From NCBI GenBank assembly GCA_004210915.1, contig SEGS01000026.1:4703-68702 (forward strand): DNA of 64,000 nt, given 5' to 3'. Numbering within the stretch: the stretch's first letter is position 1; each line of letters begins with the position of its first letter. Positions 42,985 to 49,583 of the stretch are shown piece after piece. This stretch comes from Variovorax sp. (GTDB lineage: Bacteria; Pseudomonadota; Gammaproteobacteria; Burkholderiales; Burkholderiaceae_C). Under the pieces are notes generated by a model. The model made no database searches. It was not told the origin of the DNA and saw only the letters and a list, made by a program, of their open reading frames with translations. The position numbers were made by a program, and so were the translations under genes.

Positions 42985-43008
42985 CTACAGTGCCTGCAGG
43001 GCGCCGCG

Positions 43009-44112
43009 TCAGCCCAGCGGCGGCGCAAATCCCCAACCCTCGGCCAACAACGCGTCAATGGCGCGCAGCGCCGCGTCGAGGCGTTGCGCGCGGTCGCCGT
43101 GCAGCACCACGCTGCGGCGGCCGGTGTCCGCGAGGCGGTCGGCGAAGCGCTTGGTCATCCATTCGCGGATCGCTTCGCCGTCACGCAGGCCGTCGTCTTC
43201 GAACGGCACACCATCGTGGTGGGTCAGGAGGTAGAGCCGGCCGCGGTCCTGTTCGGCGATGGCTTCGACAGCAGCGCTGCGGTGGCCCACATAGCGCTCG
43301 TGCCAGATCGCGGTGGCGAAGGCGTCGGTGTCGCACACCAGCAGCGGGCCGCCGACCGCGGCCTCGTCGCGGGCCATCGCGTTCTGCGTGGCGGCGATGT
43401 GCGTGAACTCGTCGCTGGGCCAAAGCAGGTCTTCGGGACCGGGTCGGCGCGCGCCCCGCAGTTGCGCCTGCGCGATGGCGGAGGCCAACTTCTCCACGCT
43501 GAGCGCGCGGCCGTACTCGGGCACCCAGCGCGTGAGGCCATGCGCGCCGCCGCGCGCGCGCAGCGCCTGCGCCAGCGCGATCGACAGGGTGGTGGTGCCG
43601 GTCGATTCCGCGCCGACGACCACGATGCGCCACGCAATGTCGGCGCGCACCGGTGCGCCGATGAAGTCCCAGTACGCGGAGGGATCGTTGCGAAAGCGCG
43701 TGGCCGAGATCGGCGCGAGCAGGCGCGCGGTATCGAGCGTGACCGGCATCGCGTCGAAATGCCGCGCCAGTTCTTCGCCGTAGGGCTCGGAGGTGAAGAC
43801 CGCGCTGACCGGCGGTGCATCGATGCCCGCCAGCGCCTCGCGCATCAGCGCGACATGCGCAAGCCAGATCGCATCGTTGCCGTAGTCGACCGGGATGTCG
43901 TCGACGATGCCGGTCACCACCACGTTCGGCAGCGCCGCATGCAACTCGCGCAGCCAGCGCATGCGCACTGCGAGCGGAATCGATTCGTGCGAAGCCGCCA
44001 TCGCGATCACCGTGACGCGCGCGCATTGCGACGCCGCCGCGCCGATGAGCAACTGGTGCCCTGCGTGCGGCGGGTAGAACTTGCCGATGACGAGGCCGTG
44101 CGGGTTGCTCAT
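43009..44112 (-). CDS. nadR: NadR-type protein without HTH: cytidylyltransferase-like NMN adenylyltransferase + ribosylnicotinamide kinase-like P-loop domain
   Basis: IGKFYPPHAGH (HxGH), VFTSEPYG, ISAT, GAESTGTTTL, VPEYGR, LVCDTD, VPFEDDGLR. Confidence 0.85.
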   Translation of the reverse strand: MSNPHGLVIGKFYPPHAGHQLLIGAAASQCARVTVIAMAASHESIPLAVRMRWLRELHAALPNVVVTGIVDDIPVDYGNDAIWLAHVALMREALAGIDAPPVSAVFTSEPYGEELARHFDAMPVTLDTARLLAPISATRFRNDPSAYWDFIGAPVRADIAWRIVVVGAESTGTTTLSIALAQALRARGGAHGLTRWVPEYGRALSVEKLASAIAQAQLRGARRPGPEDLLWPSDEFTHIAATQNAMARDEAAVGGPLLVCDTDAFATAIWHERYVGHRSAAVEAIAEQDRGRLYLLTHHDGVPFEDDGLRDGEAIREWMTKRFADRLADTGRRSVVLHGDRAQRLDAALRAIDALLAEGWGFAPPLG

Positions 44113-44729
44113 GCGTTGGCCAGGATCGGTTGCGGTGTGGCCTGTTGCCGCTGCCAGGCGCGCCGCCATTCCACATAGCCCGCGAGGCAGATCAGCAGGA
44201 AGATGACGTAGAGCACCGCGGTCAGCGGCAGGCTGCGCTGCCAGTAGAGCGGCACCGAGATGATGTCGACCGTGATCCACATCAGCCAGCATTCGAGCCG
44301 ACGTCGCACCTGCCACCAGGTCGCGAGCAGGCTCAGCACCAGCAGCGTGGTGTCGGCGATGGGCACGGGGCTGTCGGTCCATCGGCGCAGCGCCCAGGCG
44401 CCTGCGGCGATCGCCACGGCGCACAGCGCCAGCGACAGCGCGGCTTCGCGCAGCGGGGTGCGCGTCACCGGCACGTCGTGCGCAGCGTCGCCGTTGGCAG
44501 CGCGAGTCCATTGCCACCAGCCGACGATGCCGAGCACCGCAAAGGCAATCTGCAGCAGCGCATCGGCATACAACTTGGCGCCATAGAACAGCACCATGAA
44601 GCAGGCCACGTTGAGAAGGCTCACCGGCCAGTTCCAGATGTGGCGGATCTTGGTGAGCCACACCGTGGCGAGCCCGGTGACGAAGGCCGCGATTTCGAGC
44701 GCGGTGACGGGTTGGCCGAGCAGGTTCAC
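44109..44729 (-). CDS. pnuC: Nicotinamide riboside transporter PnuC
   Basis: IWNWPV, LYADALLQ, GWWQW, ADTT..VLSL.ATWWQ.RRRLECWL.WI.VD..SVPLY. Confidence 0.93.
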   Translation of the reverse strand: MNLLGQPVTALEIAAFVTGLATVWLTKIRHIWNWPVSLLNVACFMVLFYGAKLYADALLQIAFAVLGIVGWWQWTRAANGDAAHDVPVTRTPLREAALSLALCAVAIAAGAWALRRWTDSPVPIADTTLLVLSLLATWWQVRRRLECWLMWITVDIISVPLYWQRSLPLTAVLYVIFLLICLAGYVEWRRAWQRQQATPQPILANA

Positions 44730-46165
44730 AGCGGCGCGCGCGACGTGACGAGGGCGCGTGCGCCCGCCGCGGCCCGTTCGCGCACCGCGTCGAAGGTGGT
44801 CTGCCGCACGATGCGGCCGTCTTCGAACACGGTCTCGAGCAGGTCGGTTTGCGTGGCGTCCAGGGTCTCGATGCGCTGCGTCTGCATGGCGCCCTTCGCA
44901 TCCCGCGTGAGCGTCAGGCGCCCCTTCTTCGATGCCTTGCTCATGTCGCCGACGGGCGCCTTGTACACATCGCGCCATTCGCCGTTGACCTGCATCGCCG
45001 AGCACTTCATCGCCCACTGCATGGTGTCGCGGTTGACCTGTTGCAAAAGTCCGCCGCCCATGCCGAAGGCGACGTTCTCGGCCGAGAAGCCGTTGTGAAA
45101 GAGGTTCGAGAGGACGAGCCGCAGCGAGTCCAGGTTGATGCCGTCGCCCTGGATCACGCGCACGTTGTTCAGCACCAGGTAACCCTTGGTGTTGCGCGTG
45201 GTGCCGAAGCGCGCGGCCAGGATGCGCACCACCTTCAGCACGGTTTCGGCGGGGTCGCCCGAGTCGGGCCGCACCACCAGCGTGGCGCCCGATTGCACGA
45301 CCAGGTCCTTCAATTCGGTGCCCCAGATCTGGTCGCAGGCATTGAAGATGTCGTAGCTGTCGCTCACCACGGCGAAGATCGCGCCGGGCTTGCCGAACTG
45401 CTCGACCATGTTGCGGTAGGCGCTCGATTCCTTGTCGCGCCCCCAGCCGGTGATGGTGCTGTGTTCGGCTGCTGGAATGGAGAAGCCGGCCACGTCGCAG
45501 TCGTAGTAGCGGCGCGCCGCGACCAGTGCGGCAATCGTGTCGGTGCCCAGGAAGTTGACCAGGTGCGCCATGCCGCCGAGCGCGGCGGATTCGAGGCTCG
45601 ACACGCCGCGCGCGCCGAAGTCGTGCAGCTTGAAGCCGATTTGCGCGGCCGGGTCTTCGCAGGTCGCGTCGAGGTAGCGCATCAGCGTGGCCTTGGCAGC
45701 GCCGGAGAGCGTGGCGACCGTGGTCGGGTACCAGATGGCGCGCAACAGTTCGGTTTCGAGAAAGCTCGTGACCCAGAAGAACTCGGGGTCGGTGTTCTCG
45801 ATCGTCGCGAGCACGTTGTGCACCGGCACCACGCTGCCTTCGGGCATCGCGCGGATGCGCACGGGCATCAGGCCGCCGTGCTTTTCGATCAGGCGCAGCC
45901 AGCCTTCACGATTGAAGGGCTCCCCGTGCAAAGCCATGAGGGCGGCGGCTTCGTCGACGTCTTCGACCGTCACAGGCGTCGAGAGGTATTCGCGCAGGTA
46001 GGCCTGCAGGCCGAAGAACACCGAATGGCTGAAGGCGCCGCCGCGCGATTCGATGTAGCTGAACACCGTCTGCGTGCCGGGCGGGTACTGCATCCAGTGC
46101 GACACCTTGTAGGAGTCGGTGCGCAGCAGGAGATTGCCGCCGAGGGAGGTGGGATTGCGAGTCAT
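44726..46165 (-). CDS. nadV: Nicotinamide phosphoribosyltransferase
   Basis: TDSYKVSHW.QYP, FFGLQ, LHDFGARG, AAEHST, VVSDSYD, VRPDSGDP, IQGDG, FGMGGGLLQ, SKKGRL. Confidence 0.93.
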   Translation of the reverse strand: MTRNPTSLGGNLLLRTDSYKVSHWMQYPPGTQTVFSYIESRGGAFSHSVFFGLQAYLREYLSTPVTVEDVDEAAALMALHGEPFNREGWLRLIEKHGGLMPVRIRAMPEGSVVPVHNVLATIENTDPEFFWVTSFLETELLRAIWYPTTVATLSGAAKATLMRYLDATCEDPAAQIGFKLHDFGARGVSSLESAALGGMAHLVNFLGTDTIAALVAARRYYDCDVAGFSIPAAEHSTITGWGRDKESSAYRNMVEQFGKPGAIFAVVSDSYDIFNACDQIWGTELKDLVVQSGATLVVRPDSGDPAETVLKVVRILAARFGTTRNTKGYLVLNNVRVIQGDGINLDSLRLVLSNLFHNGFSAENVAFGMGGGLLQQVNRDTMQWAMKCSAMQVNGEWRDVYKAPVGDMSKASKKGRLTLTRDAKGAMQTQRIETLDATQTDLLETVFEDGRIVRQTTFDAVRERAAAGARALVTSRAPL

Positions 46166-46185
46166 GTGAAAGCTCCTTTCACGGT

Positions 46186-46204
46186 GGCGCCGTCAACCGG
46201 CGCC
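46186..46204 (-). promoter_or_regulatory. GUUGA-loop hairpin 20 nt upstream of the nadV start
   Basis: Minus strand GGCGCCG-GTTGA-CGGCGCC. Confidence 0.7.
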
Positions 46205-46215
46205 GTTGCTGAAAT

Positions 46216-46245
46216 GGCCTGGAAATATCAACTCTTTCCGAGGCC
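46216..46245 (-). promoter_or_regulatory. GUUGA-loop hairpin carrying the nadM stop codon in its loop
   Basis: Minus strand GGCCT-C-GGAAAGA-GTTGA-TATTTCC-AGGCC (11 bp, one bulge, one mismatch). Confidence 0.6.
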
Positions 46246-47316
46246 TCCTAGAAAGTGATTGGCGATGAAATAGTGGTCTTCGTACATGCGCTCCTGCATG
46301 TCGAGGAACTCGGCGATCGGCACCCACCGCACATCGGCCGCGTCGTCGTCGGCGCGCACGTCGGAGAGGCCCGTCCACTGGTTGTGCGCGAGCTCGAAGA
46401 AGAAGCCGTGCGTGATGGTGCGGCCGCGCTGCGATCGGTCGGGTGCGTCGAACACGTGGCTGGCCTTCATGCTGCCGTTGAGCACGGGCACGGGCACCTT
46501 CAGGCGCGTCTCTTCCTTCAGCTCACGGATCGCTGCTTCCTGCAAGCGCTCTTGCTGACCGACGAAGCCGCCGGGCAGCGCCCAGGTGCCCTTGCCGGGG
46601 TGGAACTTGCGCTGCACCAAGAGGATGTGGCCGGCCTCGACCACCACGGCATCGACGGTCGTGTAGATCGGCGGGAACTCGCTGCCGGCGTAGCGGTACT
46701 TGTCCTTGTAGTCGACGAGGAACGCGCGCTCTTCACAGAGGTCCGCGTAGTCCGTTGTACTGGTGAAGCGGTCGAGGAAGGCGGCAGTGCCGTCGGGCAA
46801 ATCGGCCGGGTTCAACTGGCCGCGCATCTCGGGGTTGAAGTAGAGCGCGCGCACGTCGGTCGCGTTGATGCTCTCGACCACGTGGTGCGCGACGAACTCC
46901 CAGCTCGGGAAGAGCTTGAGGTAGTAGCTCGATGCGTCCTTGAGGTGCCCGACCAGCGCGACCTTCGCCGCGGCCGGCTTCACGCCGTCCTGCGCGATCA
47001 GCCGGTCGACCGCCGACTGGATCGACGCGATCCAGATCTGGTCGTTGTAGGGCGAGTCGCCGACGCCGATCACGGAGACGCGCATCTGCTCGGCACCGCG
47101 CAACGACGCGCGGACCATGCGTTCACGTTCATCGAAGGTGAACGGGTTCTTGACGCTGCGGGGCTTGCGGTCGGAGCCCACGACGACGATCACGCGTTCG
47201 GCCGCACGAAGACCTTCTTCGATGAGTCGCTGGTGACCGAAATGGACGGGCTGGAAACGCCCGATGACGATGGCGTATTGAAACTTGCGTGTGCTGTGAC
47301 TGTGCTGGCTGTTCAT
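46228..47316 (-). CDS. nadM: Bifunctional NMN adenylyltransferase / ADP-ribose Nudix hydrolase
   Basis: IGRFQPVHFGH, KNPFTFDER, GH.KD.SS.YL..FP.W, INAT.VR; Nudix box PGGFV...E....AAIRELKEET; RS.RGRTITH. Confidence 0.93.
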   Translation of the reverse strand: MNSQHSHSTRKFQYAIVIGRFQPVHFGHQRLIEEGLRAAERVIVVVGSDRKPRSVKNPFTFDERERMVRASLRGAEQMRVSVIGVGDSPYNDQIWIASIQSAVDRLIAQDGVKPAAAKVALVGHLKDASSYYLKLFPSWEFVAHHVVESINATDVRALYFNPEMRGQLNPADLPDGTAAFLDRFTSTTDYADLCEERAFLVDYKDKYRYAGSEFPPIYTTVDAVVVEAGHILLVQRKFHPGKGTWALPGGFVGQQERLQEAAIRELKEETRLKVPVPVLNGSMKASHVFDAPDRSQRGRTITHGFFFELAHNQWTGLSDVRADDDAADVRWVPIAEFLDMQERMYEDHYFIANHFLGGLGKS

Positions 47317-47334
47317 TGGGAATCCCCCAAAAAG

Positions 47335-47353
47335 GACGCGATCAACTCGCGTC
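47335..47353 (-). promoter_or_regulatory. GUUGA-loop hairpin 18 nt upstream of the nadM start
   Basis: Minus strand GACGCGA-GTTGA-TCGCGTC. Confidence 0.7.
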
Positions 47354-47361
47354 TGGGATCA

Positions 47362-47390
47362 ACAATAGCACCGCTCGCGCATTCGTTCAA
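47362..47390 (-). promoter_or_regulatory. Candidate sigma70 promoter of the NAD salvage operon
   Basis: Minus strand TTGAAC-17 nt-TATTGT with TG extended -10. Confidence 0.55.
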
Positions 47391-47416
47391 TGCCCATGTG
47401 AAGAAGGAGCCACACC

Positions 47417-47797
47417 ATGCCGACCCCTGAAACGCTCGAACGTTTCATTGCGCGCGTCGAAGCCAACGCGCACGCCGAAGCTGTCGAGGAGTTCTACGCG
47501 CCCAACGTTTCGATGCAGGAGAACCAGGCGCCACCGCGCATCGGCCGCGATGAAGCGATCGCACGCGAGCGCGCCGTGATGGCGAAGGCGCGCAGCGTCA
47601 CATCGCAATGCGTGCGGCCCGTGTTCGTCAACGGCGACCACGTGGTCATCCGCTGGATCTTCCATTTTGAATGGCCGGACGGCACCGCCACGCACATGGA
47701 AGAAGTGGCCTGGCAGCGCTGGGAGGGCGAGCGTCTGGCCGAGGAAACCTTCTTCTACGACCCCGCACAGCGCGTTCCGCGAAAATCGCACCCATGA
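47417..47797 (+). CDS. NTF2/SnoaL-like protein
   Basis: EEFYAPNVSMQEN..PPRIGR, V.GDHVVIRW.F.F, EEVAWQRWEG.R..EE.FFYDP; SD AAGGAG. Confidence 0.85.
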   Translation: MPTPETLERFIARVEANAHAEAVEEFYAPNVSMQENQAPPRIGRDEAIARERAVMAKARSVTSQCVRPVFVNGDHVVIRWIFHFEWPDGTATHMEEVAWQRWEGERLAEETFFYDPAQRVPRKSHP

Positions 47798-48636
47798 CCG
47801 ATCCGACTTCCTCGTCCTCCAGCGCGCCCGGCGCCGTGCGCCTGAACAAACGCATGGCCGAACTCGGCCTGTGCTCGCGCCGTGAGGCCGACGACTGGAT
47901 CGCGCAAGGTTGGGTCAAGGTCAACGGCAAACCGGCCGAGATGGGCGTGAAGGTCACGCCGGCCGATCGTGTGGAGGTCGACCGCAAGGCCGAGCAACAG
48001 CAGCAGCAGCAGGTCACGATCCTGCTGCACAAGCCCATGGGCTACGTGAGCGGGCAGCCCGAAGACGGGCACGAGGCGGCGGTGGTTCTGGTCAACCCGC
48101 GCACGCACTGGCGCGAGGACCCGAGCCGCAACCGCTTCTCGCCGCCGCAGTTGCGCGGGCTCGCGCCTTGCGGGCGGCTGGACATCGATTCGGTCGGCCT
48201 GCTCGTACTCACGCAGGACGGCCGCATCGCGCGCCAGCTGATCGGCGAAGACTCCGGCATGGAGAAGGAATATCTGGTGCGCGTGGCGTACCACGGGCTG
48301 GACCAGCCGGCGCCGCCGCGCCAGCTCGTCCGCATGGACGACGACGACCCGATCACGAACAACGTGCGGGCCGTGTTTCCGCCGGCCTTGCTGGCGCGGC
48401 TGCGCCACGGACTGAGCCTCGATGGCCAGCCGCTCAAGCCCGCGCAGGTCGAGTGGCAGAACCCCGAGCAGTTGCGCTTCGTGCTGACCGAAGGCAAGAA
48501 GCGCCAGATCCGCCGCATGTGCGAGCAGGTGGGCCTCAAGGTGGTGGGCTTGAAGCGCATCCGCATCGGGCGGGTCTTGCTGGGCAACCTGCCCGCGGGG
48601 CAGTGGCGCTACCTCGGGCAGAACGAGCGCTTTTGA
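47794..48636 (+). CDS. rRNA pseudouridine synthase with S4 domain (RsuA/RluB/RluF family)
   Basis: RLNKRMAELGLCSRREAD, HKPMGYVS, GRLDIDSVGLL (catalytic Asp), EKEYLV, EGKKRQIRRM. Confidence 0.92.
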   Translation: MTDPTSSSSSAPGAVRLNKRMAELGLCSRREADDWIAQGWVKVNGKPAEMGVKVTPADRVEVDRKAEQQQQQQVTILLHKPMGYVSGQPEDGHEAAVVLVNPRTHWREDPSRNRFSPPQLRGLAPCGRLDIDSVGLLVLTQDGRIARQLIGEDSGMEKEYLVRVAYHGLDQPAPPRQLVRMDDDDPITNNVRAVFPPALLARLRHGLSLDGQPLKPAQVEWQNPEQLRFVLTEGKKRQIRRMCEQVGLKVVGLKRIRIGRVLLGNLPAGQWRYLGQNERF

Positions 48637-48646
48637 CGAGTACCGT

Positions 48647-49387
48647 TCAGACGGCGGCGTCGCGTGCCAGCGTCGGATGCGGCTCGTCGGCCGGGCTGGT
48701 CAGCAGCAGCTTGTAGATCAGCGCGCCGAGGATGGCGCCCACGATCGGGGCGACCCAGAACAACCACAGTTCATTCAGGGCGTACTGCGGTGCAAACAGC
48801 GCCGGGCCCGTGCTGCGCGCCGGGTTGACGGAGGTGTTGGTCACCGGGATCGACACGAGGTGAATCAGCGTCAAGCACAGGCCGATCGCGAGCCCGCCGA
48901 AGCCAGCCGGATTGCGTTTGGACGTGGCGCCCAGGATGACGATGAGGAAGATCGCCGTCAGCACCACCTCGCACAGCAGCGCCGCCGTCAGGCTGTAGCC
49001 GCCGGGCGAATGGGCGCCGAAGCCGTTGGTCGCAAAGCCGCCGATGTCGACGCCCGCCTTGCCGGTCGCGATCAGGTACAGGACCCCTGCACCCGCAATG
49101 GCGCCCAGCACCTGCGAGACCACGTAGCCGGGCAGCTCGGATGCCCGGAAGCGGCCGGCCACCACAAGGCCCACCGACACCGCCGGGTTGAAGTGCCCGC
49201 CTGAAATGCCGCCGAGCGCGTACGCGCCCGTCAACACGGTGAGGCCGAAGGCCAGCGACACGCCCGCAAAGCCGATACCGAAGCCCGGAAAGCCCGCAGC
49301 GAGCACCGCGCTGCCGCAACCACCGAAGACGAGCCAGAAAGTGCCGACGAACTCGGCCGCCCACTTCTTGAATGTGCTGTGTTCCAT
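48647..49387 (-). CDS. aqpZ: Aquaporin Z
   Basis: [42 protein letters not shown] (two NPA motifs). Confidence 0.96.
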
Positions 49388-49583
49388 ATCCCTGAATCCT
49401 GTTGTGATGAAAAAGCAAACGCGTGCCGAGGGGCACGCGCGGCAGGATTGTGGGACGGGTTTGCTCGTTTCCTTGTGCAACAGCCAGTGTGGCACCGCAT
49501 CTGTTCACGGATTACCCGCATTTCGCTCGTTCCTGCCGGGGCTTAGATTCCGTGGGTTCACTTTTCAAACCACACGCCCCCAC

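Follow-up and report, generated by a model that had tools for sequence, protein, structure and literature searches.

We analyzed a 64,000-nucleotide stretch of a Variovorax sp. genome (GenBank assembly GCA_004210915.1, contig SEGS01000026.1, positions 4,703 to 68,702; hereafter the window) and found that nadM and nadV, two genes of nicotinamide adenine dinucleotide (NAD) salvage, are each preceded by a two-hairpin RNA leader that is conserved in some bacteria and phages and is not catalogued. In each leader, a G+C-rich stem closed by the pentaloop GUUGA (hairpin A, termed H1 before nadM and H2 before nadV) is followed by a second hairpin (hairpin B) that contains the Shine-Dalgarno sequence (SD). 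The leader most likely controls the translation of nadM and nadV, as a post-transcriptional operator.

Paired hairpins in the nadM and nadV leaders

H1 and H2 end 18 nt and 20 nt, respectively, before the start codons of nadM (ATG at 47316) and nadV (ATG at 46165), and their folding energies are -11.7 kcal/mol (z -3.5) and -16.5 kcal/mol. Perfect hairpins that combine a 5-nt loop with a stem of 7 bp or more number 834 in the 4.16-Mb genome, and only two of these, H1 and H2, have the loop GTTGA. By a rough estimate, the chance of finding two same-loop hairpins in two given 60-nt leaders is about 4e-7. A relaxed search of the genome (GNTGA loop, G-U pairs, and one mismatch) returned 218 sites, nearly all intragenic; none resembled the two leaders, and no other such hairpin preceded a gene. 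The rarity of these hairpins elsewhere in the genome, on which an earlier reading of the window (hereafter the original prediction) depended, was therefore confirmed. Because H1 and H2 are the sole strict matches, the GTTGA hairpins are not a dispersed repeat, and a genome-wide repeat of the repetitive extragenic palindromic type was rejected, both copies lying within the nadM-nadV operon.

We then compared 46 bacterial loci encoding relatives of NadM, from Variovorax, Xenophilus, Xylophilus, a Rhodoferax metagenome-assembled genome (MAG), unclassified Burkholderiales, and one Gemmatales contig. A hairpin is present at both leader positions in nearly all of them, and the expectation that orthologous leaders would retain H1 and H2 thus held. 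Covariation was measured on loop-anchored alignments, with the slid partner arm as the control. Among 22 H1 sequences, 91% of cells were paired, compared with 25 to 52% for the slid arm, and double-sided changes occurred in six of the seven pairs. The corresponding values for H2 (26 sequences) were 88% and 33 to 51%, with double-sided changes in four of the eight pairs and up to five pair types per position. For both helices, the observed covariation score was reached by none of 500 shuffles. The leaders of the window belong to what we call type I; in about 50 distinct hairpins of this type, the stems change at most positions and loop positions 1, 4, and 5 are invariant. The loop is mostly GUUGA, with GCUGA, GAUGA, GUGGA, and GCCGA as further variants (pattern G-N-N-G-A), and its sequence is under selection. 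Compensatory drift of the arms around a fixed, asymmetric center is, on the evidence of these alignments, the mark of an RNA helix with a read loop and not of a protein-DNA operator, which agrees with what the original prediction had argued from the window itself.

Several other readings of the loop were rejected. As a -35 box (TTGAC or TTGAT), it has no -10 element at 16 to 18 nt, and the hexamer is not preserved in the GCUGA and GAUGA variants. An upstream open reading frame (ORF) starting at the NUG of the loop has no preceding SD, and its frame relative to nadM differs among the window, Variovorax, and the Gemmatales locus (L041). A second GTTGATC (47364-47358), considered as a direct repeat, overlaps the -10/discriminator region and is absent in relatives. 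We also discarded a pseudoknot joining the loop to the early coding region or to the 5' flank (UCAGC or CAAC), since the complementarity is not conserved across clades; in addition, pairing of all five loop bases would leave no linker.

The gap from each GNNGA hairpin to the start codon is occupied by the second conserved hairpin, hairpin B, in which the SD and, in some lineages, the start codon are buried. The nadM hairpin B contains the SD GGGGGA and extends to the first base (A) of the start codon. The 15-nt block that includes it is unchanged even in the most distant loci, and UUUGGGGGAUUCCCA is invariant at the nadM leader in all type I loci, including L041 and L042; at L038, changes from U-A to U-G in hairpin B preserve pairing. 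The nadV hairpin B ends immediately 5' of the AUG and is 100% paired in 31 sequences, with one compensatory variant (AUGAGAG/CUCUCAU) and one shortened on both sides (GUGAAG/CUUCAC). The 53-nt nadV leader folds as predicted (-23.2 kcal/mol, z -3.7), and over the entire leader 93% of cells are paired, with compensatory changes in six pairs. The matched spacing of H1 and H2 to their start codons, to which the original prediction had drawn attention, is real; its cause, which that prediction had not seen, is that an SD-bearing hairpin B fills each gap.

Hairpins A and B are separated by a linker of 3 to 12 nt that varies in length and sequence. The two stems vary independently and are not mutually complementary, and preformed hairpins that are read from outside therefore fit better than a switch between alternative pairings. 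Kissing of the two loops was rejected because they are not complementary in any type, and alternative pairing of A with B because the A stems vary freely around a fixed B.

The third hairpin that had been counted as a member of the GUUGA family, H3 at the nadM stop codon, did not retain that status: the hairpin is conserved and its loop is not. The 5' arm of H3 consists of the last nadM codons and the 3' arm lies just past the stop, and RNAfold opened the structure to a 9-nt loop. H3 spans the nadM stop in every relative, and across genera its intergenic 3' arm tracks the changes in the coding 5' arm. In every relative another loop is found (for example AACUGAA); the GUUGA seen in the window derives from the codon pair AGT-TGA and is unique to it. 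We therefore rejected H3 as a motif member. H3 would have to be melted by a terminating ribosome. Together with an A-rich spacer (UCAGCAAGAAC in Variovorax) and H2, it may form a 3'-end protector or a processing module.

The predicted nadM promoter matches a conserved TTGATC-N18-TGcTATCCT of Variovorax loci, with TATAAT at L041. In a consensus scan for promoters, the predicted nadM promoter fell below the threshold and 0 promoter-like sites were returned. The conserved promoter-like sequence ends 8 to 10 nt before H1, and for this reason the predicted transcript start would lie at about 47356-47354 and H1 would begin at +1 to +3, at the extreme 5' end of the mRNA. If so, an upstream antiterminator would be impossible. 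H1 and the CUUUUU that follows it score as terminator-like and match the consensus of an intrinsic terminator. A U-tract follows H1 in most type I nadM leaders; there is none after H2 in Variovorax, after H1 at L041, or in the nadM leaders of a second type (type II, described below).

The operon, on the minus strand of the window, comprises nadM-Nudix, nadV, pnuC, and a nadR-like gene (Table 1). Pfam domains bear out the gene identities given in the original prediction (NadM-Nudix, NadV/NAMPT, PnuC, and NadR-like), and the three hairpin sequences that it had described were all found on the minus strand where it had placed them. The pnuC and nadR-like genes have no leader hairpin of their own, and a Pfam search detected no helix-turn-helix (HTH) domain in the NadR-like protein. 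A SnoaL-like gene (47417-47797, plus strand) stands between nadM and a divergent S4/pseudouridine-synthase gene (47671-48636); the two frames overlap, and the true start of the synthase gene is therefore uncertain. In most Variovorax loci, the pseudouridine-synthase gene directly adjoins the nadM promoter region.

Table 1. Positions of hairpins, genes, and other sequence features in the window and, for the palindrome, in other loci
Feature	Position	Strand	Description
H1 (hairpin A, nadM leader)	47335-47353	-	GACGCGA-GTTGA-TCGCGTC; 7-bp perfect stem, pentaloop GUUGA
H2 (hairpin A, nadV leader)	46186-46204	-	GGCGCCG-GTTGA-CGGCGCC; 7-bp perfect stem, pentaloop GUUGA
U-tract CUUUUU and hairpin B of nadM	47316-47334	-	Hairpin B is UUGGG-GGAUU-CCCAA, 47330-47316, -5.7 kcal/mol
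Hairpin B of nadV	46166-46182	-	GUGAAAG-GAG-CUUUCAC, -6.7 kcal/mol; sequesters SD AAGGAG
H3	46216-46245	-	Imperfect, with one G/A mismatch and one bulged C; nadM stop TGA (46230-46228) in loop
Predicted nadM promoter	47362-47390	-	TTGAAC (47390-47385), N17, TGc-TATTGT (-10 at 47367-47362)
nadM	46228-47316	-	Bifunctional nicotinamide mononucleotide (NMN) adenylyltransferase/Nudix ADP-ribose pyrophosphatase, 362 aa; Pfam CTP_transf_like and NUDIX
nadV	44726-46165	-	Nicotinamide phosphoribosyltransferase, 479 aa; Pfam NAMPT_N and NAPRTase
pnuC	44109-44729	-	Pfam NMN_transporter; GTGA overlap with nadV stop
nadR-like	43009-44112	-	AAA_28 and weak CTP_transf_like match (N terminus like NMN adenylyltransferase); ATGA overlap with preceding stop
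Palindrome TTAAGT-N11-ACTTAA	L034:2883-2905, L035:2907-2929, L036:2910-2932, L037:2910-2932, L039:465-487, L084:335-357		

Distribution of the leader in bacteria and phages

A covariance model of the nadV leader (R1) was searched against 301 genomes of the family and then against 400 further genomes of the order. It gave four matches at E<=1e-5 in the family, all directly before nadV, and no match in the 400 further genomes. NadV of any kind is encoded by 7 of the 301 family genomes; those positive for R1 are exactly the four with a NadV that is at least 69% identical, and two family genomes with a 57 to 59% identical NadV in other operon contexts are without the leader. Weak R1 matches before glucokinase-like, lipoprotein, and dehydrogenase genes (L054-L056) lacked the full architecture and were rejected. 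The leader is exclusive to nadM and nadV.

It is also portable, to a distant phylum and to phages. L041, a Gemmatales MAG represented by a 2.37-Mb contig labeled Planctomycetota, carries a nadM-nadV pair (NadM 70% identical) with both type I leader hairpins, behind an AT-rich TATAAT promoter. The genes were probably transferred horizontally together with their leaders.

Eighty metagenomic loci were collected by NadV homology, so this sample is unbiased as to the RNA. The close relatives among them are all type I. Type II leaders occur on AT-rich contigs whose NadV is 55 to 59% identical, and they have the same two-hairpin layout. In their hairpin A the stem covaries (87% of cells paired, compensatory changes in seven of eight pairs) and the loop, G-AUAGA-C, is invariant; an A/U-rich linker joins this hairpin to a hairpin B of the form xxxAAA-GGAUU-UUUxxx-UG (95% paired, compensatory changes in five of seven pairs). 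The GGAUU loop is common to type II hairpin B and the nadM hairpin B of the window. Twelve loci have the type II module before nadV and five have it before nadM; in each case it follows a consensus promoter or occupies the spacer between nadM and nadV. One of the contigs is bacterial, and some are phage-like.

A pattern scan of viral contigs located the module in 120 contigs, where about 29 copies precede nadM and 5 precede nadV, counts that are biased toward well-formed modules because the pattern fixed both loops. Among 15 well-formed copies that were examined before small ORFs of unknown function, nadM follows at +385 to +740 nt in 11 and nadV at +2857 in one. In phages too, the module is specific to NAD-salvage operons. 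We considered a general phage promoter-stem-loop cassette and rejected it, since nearly all well-formed copies head nadM, nadV, or small-ORF-nadM operons.

The small ORFs between the module and nadM on phage contigs are probably co-transcribed with nadM. They comprise orf105-108, phrog_12218 (L108:5152-5478, L183, L175, L199, L218, L227), orf116-119 (L158, L202, L233, L245), and orf155 (L214, L224, L239). The orf108 family has a coiled-coil N terminus and a Cys/His-rich C terminus (LCTHNHTDGCGWH). The products of these ORFs may have an accessory or regulatory role in the NAD cassette of the phages.

On metagenome contigs of other lineages, the nadM and nadV leaders have loops of the ANGGA or GGAGN type in both hairpins, for example ACGGA/ACGGA at L097, AGGGA/AGGGA at L136, and GGAGU/GGAGA at L120-L133, with further cases at L098 and L100. 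Such loop pairs are the signature of paired CsrA/RsmA sites, which suggests that nicotinamide salvage may be under CsrA control in those lineages.

Comparison with known regulatory elements

A cmscan search against Rfam 15 returned no NAD family for positions 43000-49500 of the window at E<=10; the window gave no match to any family at E<=10, and six other loci gave none at E<=1. Full-text literature searches likewise turned up no report of an RNA element for nadV or nadM. The opinion expressed in the original prediction, that the element is neither the NAD+-I nor the NAD+-II riboswitch, was upheld. Like the leader described here, both are leader RNAs that act in cis on NAD metabolism genes and mask the ribosome-binding site. 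The NAD+-I riboswitch (nadA motif), which lies upstream of nadA, consists of tandem bulged stem-loops with a ACANCCCC bulge (PMC7297122); H1 and H2 have no bulge. In the NAD+-II riboswitch (pnuC motif), found in Streptococcus only, P1 and P1a come with an internal loop that is conserved, a terminal loop that varies, and a pseudoknot to the ribosome-binding site (PMC7749635), whereas in the leaders of nadM and nadV the terminal loop is conserved and the stem is uninterrupted, without a pseudoknot.

The operators of the repressor NrtR share the target genes and the palindromic look of H1 and H2. Each such operator is a 21-bp palindrome, with a GT-N7-AC core and arms that are conserved within a lineage, and stands upstream of nadM-nadV or prs-nadV (PMC2330246; Rodionov et al., 2008). 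In H1 and H2, by contrast, the arms covary, the center is conserved, and the GT-N7-AC core is missing. The NrtR winged helix (PF21906) had no match in the genome of the window, which is 96% complete, and was detected in the control genomes; the absence of NrtR assumed in the original prediction was thereby supported, and NrtR was rejected as the regulator.

A 23-bp palindrome, TTAAGT-N11-ACTTAA, was found at the nadM -35 region in eight loci of the Xenophilus/Xylophilus clade and in none other of 263 loci (Table 1). In this clade the H1 loop is ACGAA or ACGGA, and two of the genomes (G268 and G695) encode a true NrtR, with Nudix-like and winged-helix parts. Of five GNNGA-type genomes tested for NrtR, four are without it and one, a Variovorax, has it. 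This small sample hints that an NrtR-type operator may have replaced reading of the loop at nadM where the motif was lost. The Variovorax in question, strain W6 (G694:C1:2760707-2760883, L265), encodes an NrtR winged-helix protein in a 247-aa frame far from the salvage operon; its nadM leader has a GNNGA loop and no palindrome. The W6 protein, which could resemble NadQ, may control other NAD genes.

Three further systems resemble the leader in layout. CsrA/RsmA operators present GGA in the loops of two hairpins, of which the second lies at the SD and the first upstream of it. The nadM and nadV leaders likewise have two short hairpins a few nucleotides apart, with variable stems and a conserved pentaloop, the second presenting the SD; however, the hairpin A loop (GNNGA, or AUAGA in type II) contains no GGA, which occurs only in hairpin B, as the SD. 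CsrA (PF02599) had no match in the genome of the window and was detected in the controls Escherichia coli, Bacillus subtilis, and Thermotoga maritima, and we therefore rejected it as the reader. The guanidine-II riboswitch (mini-ykkC) has two hairpins with identical, mutually pairing ACGR tetraloops closed by C-G. It shares with our leaders two small hairpins with covarying stems, a variable linker, conserved loops and closing pairs, and a second hairpin abutting the SD. Here, however, the GNNGA and GGAUU/GAG loops are unlike and not complementary, the hairpin A loop has 5 nt, and no Rfam match was obtained; the gene context also differs, being guanidine detoxification there and NAD salvage here.

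The boxB hairpins of lambda and P22, with loops GAAAA, GAAGA, and GACAA, are bound by N and act in antitermination with boxA and Nus factors. They resemble hairpin A, which would likewise be a protein-read hairpin near the 5' end of a transcript, in the short stem and the pentaloop in which G1, a purine at position 4, and A5 are fixed and the middle is free; a GNRA-like fold with one extruded base would be possible for hairpin A as well. This pattern fits all type I loop variants but not the AUAGA of type II. The partner of hairpin A is an SD hairpin, and there is no consistent boxA: sequences resembling CGCUCUUU are confined to a subset of leaders (those of L023, L085, and the Xenophilus clade), and no search for an N-like protein was made.

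Level of action and candidate readers

From the conserved features described above, we infer at what level the module acts, that it has a reader, and what this reader is. Hairpin A, with its covarying G+C-rich stem and conserved pentaloop, would be a sequence-specific recognition site for a trans-acting reader. Hairpin B, 3 to 12 nt downstream, would limit the access of ribosomes, with the SD (in some lineages the start codon) held in its loop and 3' arm. The reader would set how much translation is permitted, and probably also the stability of the mRNA, and nadM and nadV would be controlled in parallel. NadM or NadV, both encoded by the module, would itself be the reader, and its binding of NAD-related nucleotides would make the feedback responsive to NAD.

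The reader could be a module-encoded enzyme, a metabolite, or absent altogether. We consider a module-encoded reader the most likely because the module travels with its genes, into phages and a distant phylum, and because the loop differs by lineage. The original prediction had put forward NadM-Nudix or the NadR variant as a possible binder; NadR is an unlikely reader, since the phage versions of the module occur without it. A protein reader ranks above a metabolite, a purely structural role, and a DNA operator because the linker is free, hairpins A and B have no alternative pairing, and the loops are lineage specific. Our confidence that NadM or NadV, traveling with the module, acts on the mRNA in this way falls a little short of even.

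Several observations weigh against this mechanism. The Xenophilus/Xylophilus clade keeps the H1 stem with a loop other than GNNGA, and the loop is therefore not indispensable for the nadM hairpin. H1 and its U-tract resemble an intrinsic terminator, so the effect on nadM could be partly transcriptional. To our knowledge, neither NadM nor NadV has a known RNA-binding activity, and the loop bias of the viral scan also has to be borne in mind.

A riboswitch, in which hairpin A, with or without hairpin B, directly binds NAD+, NMN, nicotinamide, or ADP-ribose and the bound state stabilizes hairpin B and stops translation, would account for the exclusive tie to NAD-salvage genes in bacteria and phages, for conserved unpaired nucleotides on covarying stems, for the occlusion of the SD, and for portability without any host factor. 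Its layout would parallel that of guanidine-II, and since no known class was matched, it would be new. Yet each hairpin has just 5 to 7 conserved unpaired nucleotides, and the junction or linker, usually the most conserved part of an aptamer, is the part that varies here. The loops are lineage specific (GNNGA, AUAGA, and ANGGA) despite a presumably identical ligand; the sequences contain no complementarity between loops or between loop and flank, a pseudoknot of the whole pentaloop is sterically implausible, and hairpins A and B have no alternative pairings. We therefore regard a riboswitch as unlikely. Another proposal does without any reader. Hairpin A would then be a stabilizer against RNase E and exonucleases, 5'-terminal in the case of H1 and formed after processing in the case of H2, or a weak attenuator; H3 would protect the 3' end of the nadM segment, hairpin B would set a low constitutive level of translation, and the GNRA-like pentaloop would be kept as a favorable cap. 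The predicted position of H1 at +1 to +3, the order of H3, A-rich spacer, and H2, which resembles intercistronic processing modules, the terminator-like H1 and U-tract, and the retention of H1 with another loop in the Xenophilus clade all fit this proposal. A stabilizer, however, needs no set loop, and three positions are invariant in the type I hairpins, as AUAGA is in type II. Capping would be achieved just as well by a plain GNRA tetraloop, yet the 5-nt length is kept, and one loop stands on two unrelated stems in the same operon. Conservation of the U-tract does not extend to H2 or to the type II nadM leaders, and termination is thus not a shared feature. A purely structural role seems to us as unlikely as a riboswitch.

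A DNA operator bound by a dimeric transcription factor, of the NrtR, NadQ, NiaR, or NadR type or another, would be in keeping with the palindromic sites and with the place of H1 at the predicted transcription start, a classic position for a repressor, and NAD genes are commonly under such repressors (PMC2330246). The arms nevertheless change by compensatory pairs, up to five types per position, around a fixed asymmetric center; the 21-bp pattern of NrtR with GT-N7-AC (PMC2330246) does not fit, and the genome lacks the NrtR winged helix. Moreover, H2 and the type II copies between nadM and nadV (L113 and L114) lie in spacers of 40 to 60 nt in which no promoter-like sequence was seen. On this comparative evidence, covariation effectively excludes the DNA operator, to which we assign a very small probability.

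The paper that defined NrtR named the regulation of NAD metabolism in Betaproteobacteria as unknown (PMC2330246). The element described here is about 50 nt long, covaries strongly, is tied exclusively to its genes, exists in two independent sequence types, and has copies in phages, which is the profile of an orphan regulatory RNA candidate. It makes testable the question of how NAD status is sensed for nicotinamide salvage where NrtR, NiaR, HTH-NadR, and CsrA are missing. The leader may belong to a new class of NAD-responsive RNA sensor in bacteria and phages, either a third, minimal two-loop NAD riboswitch or NadM or NadV binding its own mRNA according to its nucleotide-bound state, a prospect that we hold to be rather less likely than not. 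A metabolite as the reader would make the leader a new, minimal kind of riboswitch. With NadM or NadV in that role, the leader would be a new addition to the cases in which a metabolic enzyme represses the mRNA that encodes it, and an instance of enzyme-RNA feedback from bacteria and phages. If true, this would explain how phages come to carry a self-contained, self-limiting NAD-salvage cassette.

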